From an uncultured virus (IMG/VR IMGVR_UViG_3300012920_000027) (taxonomy: Duplodnaviria > Heunggongvirae > Uroviricota > Caudoviricetes), in IMG/VR virus record IMGVR_UViG_3300012920_000027: a stretch of 20,000 bases of DNA; one strand, 5' to 3'. Within the stretch, counting starts at the first letter, position 1; the number at the start of each line of letters is the position of its first letter. This document shows positions 13,403 through 18,409 of this stretch, piece by piece. Under the pieces are notes generated by a model. It made no database searches. It was not told where the DNA came from and saw only the letters and a list, made by a program, of their open reading frames with translations. The position numbers and the translations under genes are program-made.

Positions 13403-14287
13403 TCACACACCGAAGGTGTCGAGAAGTTCCTTCCAGTCTGCCTTGTTGGTTTCGGCGAAGAGTCTGGTTCGGATTGCTCGGTCCAAAGACCGGAATGTGA
13501 CGGGGTCCTCTTCCGAAGCCACTTCCTTCAGGTGAGCCAACACTTCTTGTTTCATTGGCATCGACACCCTTGGGTGGATGTTCGGTAGGACCTTTTGCAT
13601 GCGTTCCAGAACTTCAGTCCCAGTTAGAACGACGGGGACAAAGAAGCTACGGTCGATTAGGGGTTGGGGCATGTCCTTTTCCTCCTTGTTGGTGATGAAC
13701 ACCACCTGTCCTTTGAACGCGAACTTCCGTGGCAGTCCATGTTGGTCTGCCCAACCGGAGTTCCAGCTGATTGTTCGTTCGGAGTAGGAGTCAAGTGCAG
13801 CCTTGCAGAGTTCCATCATGGTCTCGTTTCCCCAGATGTCCACATCGTCAAGGACAAGCACGCCGCCATCTTTGCGTTGATGCATGGCGGTGTAGAGTCC
13901 TGTGGGGGCCATGTGACCTGCGACCCAAGTGTAGCCCGTGGGGCCTTCCTTGTCTTCGACTAGGCCTGCTGCCTTGAGGATCTGCTTGACCGTGTAGGTC
14001 TTTCCAAGTCCGCCCGTTCCACAAATGATCATGGAGGGGACGAATTTCTTGACGACCATTTTGATGATCTGTTCCATCAGTTCGAATCGTTTGTTCACAG
14101 GGAGTTTGGCCATCCGCTTGGTCACGACCTCGTTTCTGGCTTTGCTCTTCTGTTGCTTCTTTCGCCGCTTTGCTGCTTCCACAGCGTCAATCACCTCCTT
14201 GTCGGGGGTGGGTTGAGGGCGATAGGTTGATTCTGGCATTGGTTGTGAATGATTTCCTCCATCGGAGGTTTTCAGTTCAGGTTGCAT
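13403..14287 (-). CDS. AAA+ ATPase of phage type, 294 aa
   Basis: Walker A GTGGLGKT, Walker B VLVLDDVD, sensor-1 VVFITN, arginine finger LIDRS. Confidence 0.9.
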   Translation of the reverse strand: MQPELKTSDGGNHSQPMPESTYRPQPTPDKEVIDAVEAAKRRKKQQKSKARNEVVTKRMAKLPVNKRFELMEQIIKMVVKKFVPSMIICGTGGLGKTYTVKQILKAAGLVEDKEGPTGYTWVAGHMAPTGLYTAMHQRKDGGVLVLDDVDIWGNETMMELCKAALDSYSERTISWNSGWADQHGLPRKFAFKGQVVFITNKEEKDMPQPLIDRSFFVPVVLTGTEVLERMQKVLPNIHPRVSMPMKQEVLAHLKEVASEEDPVTFRSLDRAIRTRLFAETNKADWKELLDTFGV

Positions 14288-14312
14288 GAGAGGCAAGATG
14301 GGGTAGAGCGAA

Positions 14313-14350
14313 CGAAAGCCCCACACCGCAGATGCGGTATGGGGCTTTCG
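14313..14350. terminator. Long near-perfect hairpin upstream of the AAA+ gene (terminator-like or processing stem)
   Basis: CGAAAGCCCCA-CACCGCA-GA-TGCGGTA-TGGGGCTTTCG. Confidence 0.5.
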
Positions 14351-14370
14351 AACACGCTTGCGTGAGAGGT

Positions 14371-14548
14371 GAGTGCAATTCAGGGTCGCTACCAGGCCTG
14401 CTACCTAGGCTGCACTAAGCCATGCCTGTGACCCTCTGCCGTGCCCGGGACACCTTTCGGGTCGCCGGATAAACAGGGGGTTGCCGTTCCAGTAGGCTCA
14501 CAATCCCTACCCCGTTCGGAGGGGTCTGAGGGAAGATGATTGGGCATT
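14371..14548 (-). ncRNA. Candidate structured RNA, copy A of a tandem pair
   Basis: Shares ATGCC/GGCAT closing stem, TGGAAC-loop hairpin and 3' GGTA(A)GCAGG...GCGA.CC block with copy B; compensatory changes between copies. Confidence 0.6.
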
Positions 14549-14578
14549 CTACCAATGGGGGACTTGTGGGTTCTCCAT
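14549..14578 (-). CDS. 9-codon ORF MENPQVPHW*
   Basis: ACCTCTC-ATG start; same length and TGG-TAG-AATGCC end as the ORF at 14791. Confidence 0.45.
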   Translation of the reverse strand: MENPQVPHW

Positions 14579-14589
14579 GAGAGGTGAGT

Positions 14590-14790
14590 GGTTTTTTCGG
14601 TTCGCCATCCTACCTGCTTACCGAAGGGACCACCATCCCATGCCTTGAGCCCCGTTTTCTAAGGGGCCGCCCGTTCCATTTGGGCGCGCATAGAGCTCGA
14701 GTGGTGGCTCGGCCCATGCGGATTACCGCAATAGCTCCGGGGGCTATCGCGGATAATCACTGCTTGGGCTGCTCAAAACGCTGTGGCATT
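14590..14790 (-). ncRNA. Candidate structured RNA, copy B of a tandem pair
   Basis: As copy A; additional stem CCGCGATAGC/GCTATTGCGG with a G-U pair. Confidence 0.6.
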
Positions 14791-14820
14791 CTACCAGCGG
14801 ATGATGTAGTTGATCTCCAT
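14791..14820 (-). CDS. 9-codon ORF MEINYIIRW*
   Basis: Exact ACCGCTC-ATG start; TGG-TAG-AATGCC end. Confidence 0.45.
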   Translation of the reverse strand: MEINYIIRW

Positions 14821-14840
14821 GAGCGGTTTGACCTCAGCGA

Positions 14841-14901
14841 GGCCACCCCGGGGCGCCGTAGCGCCCCGGGGGGCGGTGTTCAGGTCAGTGACCTGAAGGC
14901 C
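14841..14901 (-). repeat. Palindrome plus C(UACG)G hairpin element, copy 1
   Basis: CAGGTCA-N-TGACCTG followed by CCCGGGGCGC-TACG-GCGCCCCGGG, just 3' of a CDS. Confidence 0.85.
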
Positions 14902-14915
14902 AGAGCCGGTTAAGC

Positions 14916-15827
14916 TCAGACATCCACGACCACGAGGGTCGGGAAGCCGGCGTCGAGTTGCAGGTCGACGAAGTACTGCCGGATGCGGGCGTTGCAGTCA
15001 AGGGCACGCCTCCACGAGTTCCCCTGGCCAGGGAACTGTGCGACCGGGAATCCACGCACGCCCGAATCGACGAGCGTTTGGTGTGCGTCGTTGTCGGCCG
15101 TGTTGGGCGTGGTTCCTCGTCCGGTGAGGAGGAAACCGGGGTTGATGCCGTTTCCATCGCTGCGTCGCAGGGACATCTTCCGGTTGTCGCCGTTGATGTC
15201 TGCGATGATCTGGATGAATCCGTGCTGGGCCCGGCTGCGCTTGTTGTCCTTGCGCTTCTCCTGTCCCGCCTTGGTGTACGGGATGCTGCGGAGGCGAAGG
15301 GCTGCGTTGACCAGCAGGCAGTAGCCGTTGACCAGGACCTTGTCGCGGGAACTCGAGAGTTGCCACTTGTTCAGTCCGTTGTAGTCGGGAGTAGGCCAAT
15401 GAGTGAGGCCTTTGCTGTCCCAACCGTCCTCAGGTGCCGGCAACATCTCAACGAAGATGGCGTGATCCATGTCGGCCATTTCGGTGGTGTAGCGGATTTT
15501 GAGCATTCCTGCCTCCTTGAGGGGCGTGAGGGCGCTGACGATTGCATCAATGTCGGCCTGAGTTTTGATGGCGTCGTTGATGGTTTTTCCGTCTGCGTCT
15601 GTGTGCTTCACGAGGAAGAGAGGATTGTCGTCCTTGCTCATTTCCATGTAGGCGAAGCGGGTGCCACTGGCAGTCTTGAACTGCGGGTGGGGCTTGCCTT
15701 TCGTGAAGACCGTCTCGACGGTGACGCCGTTCAGGTGCTCCTCTGCCGTGTGGATCGCTTGCGCGAAGTCCTCCACGGTGTAGGTCAGGTTGTTGGTCTG
15801 GTTTTCGGGGTATGCTGCGGTTTGCAT
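14916..15827 (-). CDS. Hypothetical protein, 303 aa, strongly codon-biased and possibly highly expressed
   Basis: ACCACTC-ATG start (MQTAAYP); C/G-ending codons; stop-free antisense frame. Confidence 0.88.
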   Translation of the reverse strand: MQTAAYPENQTNNLTYTVEDFAQAIHTAEEHLNGVTVETVFTKGKPHPQFKTASGTRFAYMEMSKDDNPLFLVKHTDADGKTINDAIKTQADIDAIVSALTPLKEAGMLKIRYTTEMADMDHAIFVEMLPAPEDGWDSKGLTHWPTPDYNGLNKWQLSSSRDKVLVNGYCLLVNAALRLRSIPYTKAGQEKRKDNKRSRAQHGFIQIIADINGDNRKMSLRRSDGNGINPGFLLTGRGTTPNTADNDAHQTLVDSGVRGFPVAQFPGQGNSWRRALDCNARIRQYFVDLQLDAGFPTLVVVDV

Positions 15828-15834
15828 GAGTGGT

Positions 15835-16116
15835 GTGTGTGGGCGGTCCATTTGCTATCCGGCGTTCTGTCAAACCTTGCGCGGTTTGTCCCCTCGCCCT
15901 GCCGGGGTCATAGGGGCTTCCAGCAATTCCCCCGGCTTGATGTGAGTACCCCCTCTCGAGGGCAGAGCACACCGTTCCAGGCAGAAAAGCGTTGTTTGGG
16001 CTCTTTCTCGGGTTGCAATCCCACCACTTTCGTGGTGAAGGAGTTCAATCGGCCGAGTTTGTCCTGCTCAGAGTCCTTCGAGTGGAGAAGGAGGCAGGCT
16101 ATCAGTCCCTTACGGG
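15835..16116 (-). ncRNA. Candidate ~280-nt structured RNA between two motif copies
   Basis: Begins after ACCGCTC-ACA; CCC-GTAA-GGG, CACCAC-GAAA-GTGGTG, GCCGGGG/CCCCGGC stem, TGGAAC loop. Confidence 0.5.
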
Positions 16117-16144
16117 TGTGAGCGGTTCATCGGACAAGTCCGAA

Positions 16145-17887: not shown

Positions 17888-17921
17888 GAGTGGTTGGCGA
17901 GGGTGTTCCTTCCCTCATACC

Positions 17922-18319
17922 TAAGGCCCACAGGGGCCTTAGGGCGTGTTCGTGAGTGGTTGTGTGCGGTGACCGACTTCCCAGAGAAGTCGGCTCCTTG
18001 ATCGGCATTTTGTTGTCCTGCTCAGGGGGATCTATCCCCTTTGCGACATCCGGATGCTCTGGCATCCTCCTGTCCTACGGACTGGACTTAGCAACATCGA
18101 AGAGCTTGCTAGGCTCAACGAATCGGCTTTGTCCACAAAATGAGTCTCATAAGGGTGAGTTGTGACCTTGGCAGGACTCCTCGCTCAAACGGCGGGCGTC
18201 GATGCCTCGTTAAGGCCACAATACTCGGTAAATTACGAGTGGTGGGTGGAGAAAGCACCCTTTCGGGTCTTCCTCACTTCTAAGGTCCACAGGGGCCTTA
18301 GGGCGTGTTCGTGTGTGGT
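17922..18319. repeat. Two ~39-bp direct repeats with an internal hairpin (17922-17960 and 18281-18319)
   Basis: TAAGG(C/T)CCACAGGGGCCTTAGGGCGTGTTCGTG(A/T)GTGGT. Confidence 0.85.
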
Positions 18320-18329
18320 GATGTGAAAG

Positions 18330-18401
18330 GACCCACCTGGGTCGCCGTAGCGACTCAGGGGGTGTTGTACAGGTCAGTGACCTGGAAAAGCGGCGAAGGT
18401 C
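18330..18401 (-). repeat. Palindrome plus C(UACG)G hairpin element, copy 3
   Basis: GACC...CAGGTCACTGACCTG-TACAACACC-CCCTGAGTCGC-TACG-GCGACCCAGG-TGGGTC. Confidence 0.85.
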
Positions 18402-18409
18402 ACGAAGTC

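Follow-up and report, generated by a model that had tools for sequence, protein, structure and literature searches.

Tandem structured RNA units, each led by a nine-codon open reading frame, in an uncultured virus

Introduction

What does a virus encode in a gap between two genes that is filled, twice over, by the same succession of hairpins, each time led by a reading frame of nine codons? The question is raised by a locus in the uncultured marine virus IMGVR_UViG_3300012920_000027 (Caudoviricetes; IMG/VR), of which we analysed one stretch of 20,000 nucleotides, hereafter the window. The locus lies within the 590 nt that separate two genes of the minus strand (14916-15826 and 13403-14287). 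An initial annotation had described a tandem pair of homologous structured RNAs, each behind a nine-codon open reading frame (ORF). The elements it named are present and are to be read on the minus strand, to which all features of the locus below belong. The element belongs to a broad kind already known, viral structured RNAs preceded by a mini-ORF, within which it forms a new class, so far found in one narrow viral clade.

Results

Two diverged copies of one RNA

Unit 1 (14823-14578, 246 nt) and unit 2 (14581-14363, 219 nt) have in common the CTCA that ends the first. With 72% column identity in an alignment, they are diverged copies of one RNA. Both run through the same blocks in the same order: CTCATG, 22 nt, GGTAGAATGCC, variable hairpins, a GCC-(N3)UGGAAC-GGC hairpin, AGGCATGG, a short hairpin, AGCAGG..GCGA.CC and CACTCACCTCTCA. 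Apart from the variable hairpins, these blocks are identical in the two units. The shared 12-mer TGGTAGAATGCC has exact copies at 14554-14543 and 14796-14785, at the offset of 242 nt first described. The shared 13-mer CACTCACCTCTCA is likewise exact (14375-14363 and 14590-14578), at an offset of 215 because unit 1 is 27 nt longer than unit 2. The UGGAAC hairpins (14685-14669 and 14497-14483), the GGCAT partners of ATGCC (14644-14640 and 14426-14422), the short hairpin (GGGAU/GUCCC versus GGCU/AGCC) and the AGCAGG..GCGA.CC hairpin all stand where they had been placed. The mini-ORFs read MEINYIIRW* (14820-14791) and MENPQVPHW* (14578-14549).

Relatives and known families

The claim that these are members of a conserved family of structured RNAs, whose stems have diverged with compensatory changes, held up. 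The pattern exceeds what chance would give: the ordered blocks recur in three more sequences from other contigs. This gives five distinct sequences from three lineages: a unit 1 type, a unit 2 type and the type of G001, a complete viral genome (127,570 bp, with terminal repeats) in which exact-pattern scans located one unit. Two metagenome contigs (L123 and L124), near-identical to G001, carry a unit identical to its own. A further metagenome contig (L045), a close relative of the window, has a two-unit locus. A covariance model of the 3' domain (the 3' third) of the units gave seven matches at E <= 1.7e-17 in 156,896 bases, all of them units; the next best match had E = 0.15. Matches to this model fall at exactly one locus per genome.

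Wider searches returned few relatives. The scan of metagenome contigs with a 3' pattern matched at least 119 stretches, and the true members among the matches listed were L045, L123 and L124. Among viral contigs, the 5' pattern hit seven loci, none related; G001 was the sole relative among the five loci with the 3' pattern, the 31 with a CTCATG..GGTAGAATGC pattern and the three with a pattern for the long hairpin downstream of the units. A pattern scan of 185,579 prokaryote genomes gave 16 loci, none related, and blastn against phage records gave no match. BLAST of the unit pair against G001 misses the homologue, because it is too diverged. Searching through the downstream ATPase protein led to one relative (nine stretches) and, with alignment, to three loci (155 stretches); the two added ATPases are 28% identical and their loci lack the RNA. 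The same route through the upstream gene gave no relatives.

That the family is an unrecognised one was borne out: it has no Rfam, tRNA or tmRNA match. Rfam 15 (4227 models) at gathering thresholds gave no match in the whole window. At E <= 10, five matches appeared in 14200-14950, all far under threshold and none on the conserved core; they fall on flanking hairpins or reach only the edge of a unit, Rubella_3 covering its first ~20 nt and PtaRNA1 its last ~16 nt. The Rfam scan of G001 returned one tRNA and nothing else. ARAGORN found no tRNA or tmRNA gene in the window, and a T-box covariance model had no match at E <= 10 in the locus region. The UGGAA of the P4 loop may resemble a T-loop pentad. 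We also considered TGGTAGAAT as a sigma-70 element; no promoter-like site was seen in 13900-15300, whether as -35/-10 hexamers or as an extended -10, and the G001 counterpart, AGGTAGAAT, lacks the TG. The AUGCC that follows TGGTAGAAT covaries with GGCAU and is therefore part of the RNA. Nothing on this RNA turned up among the papers examined from literature searches for CCGCTCATG or for RNA motifs of marine phages.

A predicted two-junction fold with a pseudoknot

A predicted fold with two junctions (P2/P3/P4/P5 and P1a/P2/P6/P7) is common to all five sequences. It consists, from the 5' end, of an extension (start signal, AUG and 22 nt), P1a (GGUAGA), P2 (AUGCY), P3, P4, P5, the 3' strand of P2 (RGCAU), P6, P7, a link and a tail. 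The same twelve segments were found in all five sequences, and the variable ones each fold locally as a hairpin or branched hairpin. In unit 1, the 5' strands of P1a (GGUAGA) and P2 (AUGCC) lie at 14795-14790 and 14789-14785, followed by the branched P3 domain (14784-14686), P4 with loop AAAUGGAAC (14685-14669) and P5 (14668-14645). The P2 3' strand GGCAU (14644-14640), P6 (14639-14626), P7 (AGCAGG..GCGA, 14625-14598), the link (14597-14591) and the tail CACUCACCUCUCA (14590-14578) complete this core (14578..14795), whose 3'-domain model match scores 83.9 bits. The core of unit 2 (14363..14553; 78.3 bits) comprises the 5' strands of P1a (14553-14548) and P2 (14547-14543), P3 (14542-14498), P4 (14497-14483), P5 (14482-14427), the P2 3' strand (14426-14422), P6 (14421-14408), P7 (14407-14383), link (14382-14376) and tail (14375-14363).

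Three elements close the fold: P1a, between GGUAGA and the UCACC of the tail; P2, between AUGCC and GGCAU; and a 5-bp pseudoknot. In the latter, the P6 loop RGUGS (GGUGG or AGUGC) pairs with SCACU, formed by the last link base and the tail CACU; all 25 of 25 cells are paired, and a G-C to C-G swap is seen. Elsewhere, a C-G pair of P2 is U-A in G001, P1a survives two G-C to G.U changes in G001, and one P7 pair occurs as C-G, A-U or U-A. Compensatory long-range pairs span 140-200 nt. The pseudoknot and P1a together account for the invariance of CACUCACC. Over the 3' third, 90% of cells pair, versus 79.4% in shuffled controls (5 in 500 reaching 90%) and 20-47.5% when partners are slid. An unconstrained minimum free energy (MFE) fold (RNAfold) of the G001 unit alone gives P2, P3, P4, P5 and P7. 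The G.U pairs of P1a in G001, of P6 and of the long hairpin are compatible with a minus-strand RNA only. The full-length pair tables come from our own anchor-based script, because MAFFT misaligned the unit middles.

At the 5' end, the window-type units have a hairpin, P0, in which the AUG region pairs with CCGCUGG; in G001 this AUG is unpaired. Two further pairings were considered and not retained. A further pseudoknot, in which the P7 loop would pair with positions 15-19 of the mini-ORF, forms 5/5 pairs in unit 1 types, 4/5 in G001 and 2-3/5 in unit 2 types, and is an idea only. A GAGA/UCUC helix joining the extreme ends is lost in unit 2 of L045 and in G001.

DNA contigs of four public runs carry close variants of the locus, and 40 of 71 substitutions among them were listed. 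The 35 of these 40 that fall inside the units are all in the P0 loop or bulge, P3, P5 or J5/2, with none in P1a, P2, P4, P6, P7, link or tail. Three of them touch P0 of unit 1, in each case in a loop or bulge. Double compensatory changes occur at three pairs (46/135 and 76/94 of unit 1; 103/149 of unit 2). One DNA contig of run X9 has 280 unalignable nt in place of 537 nt (14376-14914), while its tail, hairpin and upstream gene still match; it is probably a one-unit strain.

A stop codon inside the closing helix

The mini-ORF is nine codons plus TAG in all five sequences, a length that is constant because the 22-nt spacer is fixed. In the window, it runs over 14791..14820 in unit 1 (ATG, eight codons, TAG) and over 14549..14578 in unit 2, where its start signal ACCTCTC (14585-14579) lies inside the tail of unit 1. 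The peptides (MEINYIIRW, MEINHIIRW, MENPQVPHW, MNDPQVTHW and MKVINDIKR) are not conserved, and the close pairs differ by five non-synonymous and one synonymous change. The stop codon had been thought to abut the closing helix. It is instead within it: UAG is U31-A32-G33 of P1a, and the 5' strand of P2 is made up of the five bases that follow, so that UAG plus the next 8 nt make up the 5' strands of both closing helices. From this geometry, a ribosome on the mini-ORF and a folded core should not be able to coexist. It is plausible, on the modelled fold, that translation of the mini-ORF gates folding. This is favoured by the position of UAG and the next 8 nt within the closing helices and by the genuine gene-start signal at each AUG.

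Two other uses of the region as coding sequence were considered. Read-through or recoding of the TAG was rejected, as stops fill all three frames of the region. An ORF from the tail ACG to the ATPase start is open in both lineages; its frames differ after an indel, so it is probably due to chance.

The bacterial-type attenuator of the initial annotation was not supported. A short ORF does lie upstream of a gene in all five sequences. No regulatory codons are conserved in the five peptides, and inspection by eye, with no dedicated computation, showed no competing pairing with the hairpin at 14350-14313 longer than about 4 contiguous bp. We therefore disfavour a leader-peptide attenuator of the bacterial kind, for these two reasons and because the host is probably archaeal, as the related genome suggests.

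A start signal shared with nearly all minus-strand genes

Each unit begins with ACCGCTC|ATG (14821..14827 for the signal of unit 1), which marks the start of nearly all genes on the minus strand, both in the window and in G001. On the minus strand of the window, 41 of 45 CNCTCATG sites are followed by an ORF of at least 40 codons, against a single site, also so followed, on the plus strand. In G001, the counts are 102 of 112 on the minus strand and 2 of 4 on the plus strand. CCGCTC itself occurs 44 times on the minus strand of the window and never on the plus strand. The information is confined to positions -7 to -1, and spacing to the ATG is always zero. The 41 ORF-leading sites on the minus strand of the window (for example 3713, 7525, 8235, 10088, 11072, 12311, 12963 and 16447) have no Shine-Dalgarno site, and the preceding stop most often lies 10-11 nt upstream.

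In either genome, the units are the sole full-signal sites in non-coding DNA that lead a very short ORF; further short ORFs behind the signal in G001 are inside longer ones. Their TAG is unusual as well, since the 41 signal-led ORFs of the window stop at 38 TGA, 2 TAA and 1 TAG. The corresponding stops in G001 (43% G+C) are 63 TGA, 34 TAA and 5 TAG. Plus-strand genes of G001 (1-12 kb and 57-70 kb) are without ACCGCTC, and many have GGAGG or GGTGA 5-9 nt before the ATG; the signal is therefore not the general translation start of the host. Its possible roles include transcription initiation by a virus-specific element, RNA processing and a special context for translation. On the plus strand of G001, 6 of 30 listed genes have a AAACGGTTGAAC-like box ending ~17-18 nt before the ATG, a candidate second promoter class.

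Two non-coding stretches elsewhere in the window, also on the minus strand, are of note here. One of ~318 nt (15827-16144) starts with AACCGCTC|ACA rather than ATG and contains TGGAACGG (15979), CTGAGCAGGACAA (16069) and a long-range CCUGCC/GGCAGG pairing. This stretch may hold a further structured RNA, perhaps distant kin of the units. The other, of ~520 nt (17888-18409), has a 58-nt repeat (18325-18269 and 17966-17909) around a hairpin CCUAAGGCC..GGRCCUUAGG. The second repeat copy is led by AACCACTC|ACG, and CTGAGCAGGACAA (18023) is common to both stretches.

Neighbouring genes and hairpins

Between the two flanking genes, the gap holds, from 5' to 3', three hairpins, unit 1, unit 2, a small hairpin and a 17-bp hairpin, with the ATPase start 25 nt further on. 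The upstream gene (14916..15826; listed as an ORF of 14916-15851) encodes ~303 amino acids from a signal-led start, CACCACTC|ATG at ~15826. No family was found for its product, and an atlas look-up gave nothing usable; a homologue also precedes the unit in G001. The three hairpins past this gene (14832..14895) are CAGGTC-ACT-GACCTG (14895-14881), a GC-rich one (~14874-14843) and CCTC-GCT-GAGG (14842-14832). In G001, a GC-rich hairpin of different sequence stands in the matching place after the upstream gene. The first two of the three hairpins in the window make up a module (CAGGTCACTGACCTG, then a GC-rich ..GCTACGGCG.. hairpin) that occurs at 18384 as well as at 14895 on the minus strand, behind two different genes, and may be a shared 3'-end or termination element.

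Past unit 2, whose tail carries a start-like signal and then ACG, not AUG, lies a small hairpin CACG-CAAG-CGUG (14353..14364; ACGC-A-GCGU in G001). It is followed by the 17-bp hairpin CGAAAGCCCCAUACCGC-AUCU-GCGGUGUGGGGCUUUCG and UUCG (14313..14350), which is present in one copy per genome, differs between the window and G001 by one mismatch in 34 nt, and is terminator-like in a bacterial scan. The difference, C to U, leaves a G.U pair solely in the minus-strand RNA. The downstream gene (13403..14287, start signal GCCTCTC|ATG) encodes a 294-amino-acid P-loop ATPase (phrog_1250) whose N-terminal stretch is basic. Over residues 61-288 it shares 32-34% identity with T4-type nrdC.10 proteins, some annotated as 'clamp loader'; the basic N-terminus is outside this shared part. 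A sequence search of the PDB with the ATPase gave nothing under E 0.3. The G001 orthologue is 80% identical, and the ATPase, the start signal and the hairpin (33/34) are kept even though G+C content is 53.6% in the window versus 42.9% in G001.

A probable archaeal host

The proteins of the window are mostly without a match; those matched are an N6/N4 methylase, a DUF6915 protein, a small AAA_33 kinase-like protein and the ATPase. G001 encodes a thermosome-type chaperonin (E 1.1e-100 to NCBIfam thermosome models, thermosome_alpha, versus 1e-14 to 1e-19 to GroEL) and an RpoA''-like protein (E 1e-32, NCBIfam), both scoring under the curated cut-offs. Further G001 products are a 1602-amino-acid protein that combines a TFIIS zinc ribbon with ligase-like parts, and one with a weak match to TFIIB repeats. 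The G001 loci are L165 8522-11011 (plus) for the RpoA''-like protein, L169 7010-8497 (minus) for the chaperonin, L169 8514-13322 (minus) for the 1602-amino-acid protein and L167 18114-19205 (plus) for the TFIIB-repeat match. Philosof et al. 2017 (PMC5434244) describe unclosed 'group D' magrovirus-related scaffolds with archaeal-type thermosome and RNA polymerase A genes. Such traits, a thermosome-type chaperonin and an archaeal-type RNA polymerase subunit A, are found in G001 and not in the window itself. The clade probably infects marine archaea, as judged from the gene content of the relative G001 rather than that of the window, and transcription in G001 is possibly virus-directed.

Discussion

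We tentatively interpret the locus as encoding a structured viral RNA that is active when its pseudoknotted core is folded and whose nine-codon ORF couples this state to translation, a reading to which we give slightly less than an even chance. Each unit would be a gene-like module yielding a compact structured RNA of ~190-245 nt. A ribosome reading or terminating on the mini-ORF would open P1a and P2, making translation and the folded core mutually exclusive. The folded core would be the working product, binding a protein or small ligand through its invariant loops (UGGAAC of P4; AGG...GAUG of P7), and mini-ORF translation would give the virus a way to reset or titrate it. The window lineage carries two diverged copies, both conserved, and the G001 lineage one. 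A role in trans or within a ribonucleoprotein seems likelier than bacterial-style attenuation because the related genome looks archaeal-viral.

Several points weigh against this interpretation. The binding partner of the core is a guess. A strong start signal is odd for a trans-acting RNA, and a cis-acting leader would fit as well. Among the listed strain variants, several break local-fold pairs in P3 or P5, mostly beside indels. Folding energy singles out unit 1 alone (MFE z-score -3.36); unit 2 (+0.15, with 110 of 200 shuffles as stable) and the G001 unit (+0.12, 105 of 200) do not stand out. Most core pairs are invariant across the sequences, three independent lineages are too few for a formal covariation test, and the segmentation was made by a regular expression fitted to these same five sequences.

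The units could instead be a cis-acting leader of the ATPase gene, in which one or two sensors, riboswitch-like or protein-binding, and the mini-ORF set the flow of ribosomes or polymerase through the conserved hairpin. We consider this possible, though unlikely. Their place directly upstream of an ATPase orthologue is kept in both lineages, but gene order is conserved on either side of the locus, so that the linkage may simply reflect ancestry. Complex junctions, invariant loops and variable outer stems recall aptamers, two sensors ahead of one hairpin recall tandem aptamers, and the clade-specific basic N-terminus of the ATPase, outside its T4-aligned residues, could bind its own leader. Against this, no convincing alternative pairing of a unit with either hairpin arm was found by eye, the ATPase has its own start signal, and the number of units varies while the hairpin is unchanged. 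The terminator-like appearance of the hairpin in a bacterial scan speaks for a leader, but the host is probably archaeal, and hairpin terminators are not known to be the rule in archaea. An improbable alternative is a processing cassette, cut at CUC|A either autocatalytically or by a nuclease, of the virus or of the host, that reads the signal, to give discrete RNAs and leaderless messages. The units do join head to tail exactly at the signal, the last one retains a start-like tail (ACCUCUC|ACG; ACUACUC|ACG in G001) with no ORF after it, further non-coding stretches of the window start with the signal and ACA or ACG, and a ribosome-binding site would not usually adjoin the ATG with an invariable spacing of zero. 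However, no known ribozyme family matches, and the tail is already accounted for by P1a and the pseudoknot, save for its last 5 nt.

That the locus acts as DNA, with protein-binding blocks or palindromes of a replication origin or regulatory region beside an AAA+ ATPase gene, we regard as very improbable. Diverged repeats with short invariant blocks do lie beside the ATPase, which has a faint Orc1/Cdc6-like Walker region (E 4.4e-4, far under the family cut-off), and the G001 locus is near a change in GC/AT skew at ~52 kb. But this change coincides with a switch of coding strand, with the G.U pairs and the C-to-U difference of the hairpin, pairing is preserved on one strand only, and compensatory changes occur in pairs 140-200 nt apart. 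Slimmest of all is the chance of decaying duplicated gene starts or other non-functional spacer. It would explain the gene-like start of each unit and the unconstrained peptides, but not why core blocks show no difference between copies that are elsewhere ~72% identical and are kept across genomes of 43% and 54% G+C, nor why the listed strain variants avoid them.

A bolder form of our preferred interpretation, which we hold to be decidedly unlikely, is that this is the first complex-fold pseudoknotted RNA class, of riboswitch or ribozyme grade, of an archaeal virus lineage, and that its expression depends on an initiator-type signal specific to the virus. The A of ACCGCTC|A would be the first base of leaderless RNAs, coding when AUG follows and non-coding with ACG or ACA, and leaderless translation of nine codons would be a built-in unfolding switch. 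The unit pair, 15827-16144 and 17888-18409 would then form a small signal-led regulon of non-coding RNAs.

Known systems resemble the locus in part. The Mg2+ leader of Salmonella mgtA, with mgtL, is a structured mRNA leader containing a short ORF. Both systems place a short ORF in a structured RNA of ~200 nt and let translation compete with folding; unlike mgtA, the units have no sequence or Rfam relation to it, no alternative terminator pairing and no regulatory codons, and they come in tandem copies with a probably archaeal host. The tandem aptamers of glycine riboswitches likewise put two homologous, junction-rich domains with variable outer stems before a hairpin and a gene. In contrast, G001 has a single copy, every unit has its own start signal and mini-ORF, and there is neither a clue to a ligand from gene function nor an Rfam match. 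ToxI of type III toxin-antitoxin systems consists of tandem RNA repeats followed by a hairpin and a protein gene. Its repeats are ~36 nt and near-identical, whereas the units are 192-246 nt and diverged, and the protein downstream here is an nrdC.10-like P-loop ATPase (phrog_1250), not a ToxN-type nuclease. The ribosome-shunt leader of cauliflower mosaic virus has a stop codon at the foot of a closed structure and near the following start, much as the next AUG in unit 1 lies 5 nt past the P1a 3' strand; that mechanism is eukaryotic, and past the last unit stands ACG instead of AUG. Among RNAs of viruses of prokaryotes, GOLLD and ROOL are large, ornate and phage-associated (Nature 2025, PMC12286853), and are complex conserved RNAs without known function. 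They differ in being 2-4 times larger and in Rfam, whose scans of the window and of G001 gave no match to them.

The locus offers a compact, testable fold with two junctions and one pseudoknot, which occurs naturally both singly and as a pair, and a direct physical tie between the mini-ORF and the closing helices. Structured RNAs in viruses of uncultured marine microbes are almost unexplored, and none this complex is known from archaeal viruses. The genome-wide use of ACCGCTC|ATG in place of Shine-Dalgarno sites, on one strand only, hints at a virus-specific start of transcripts or of translation.

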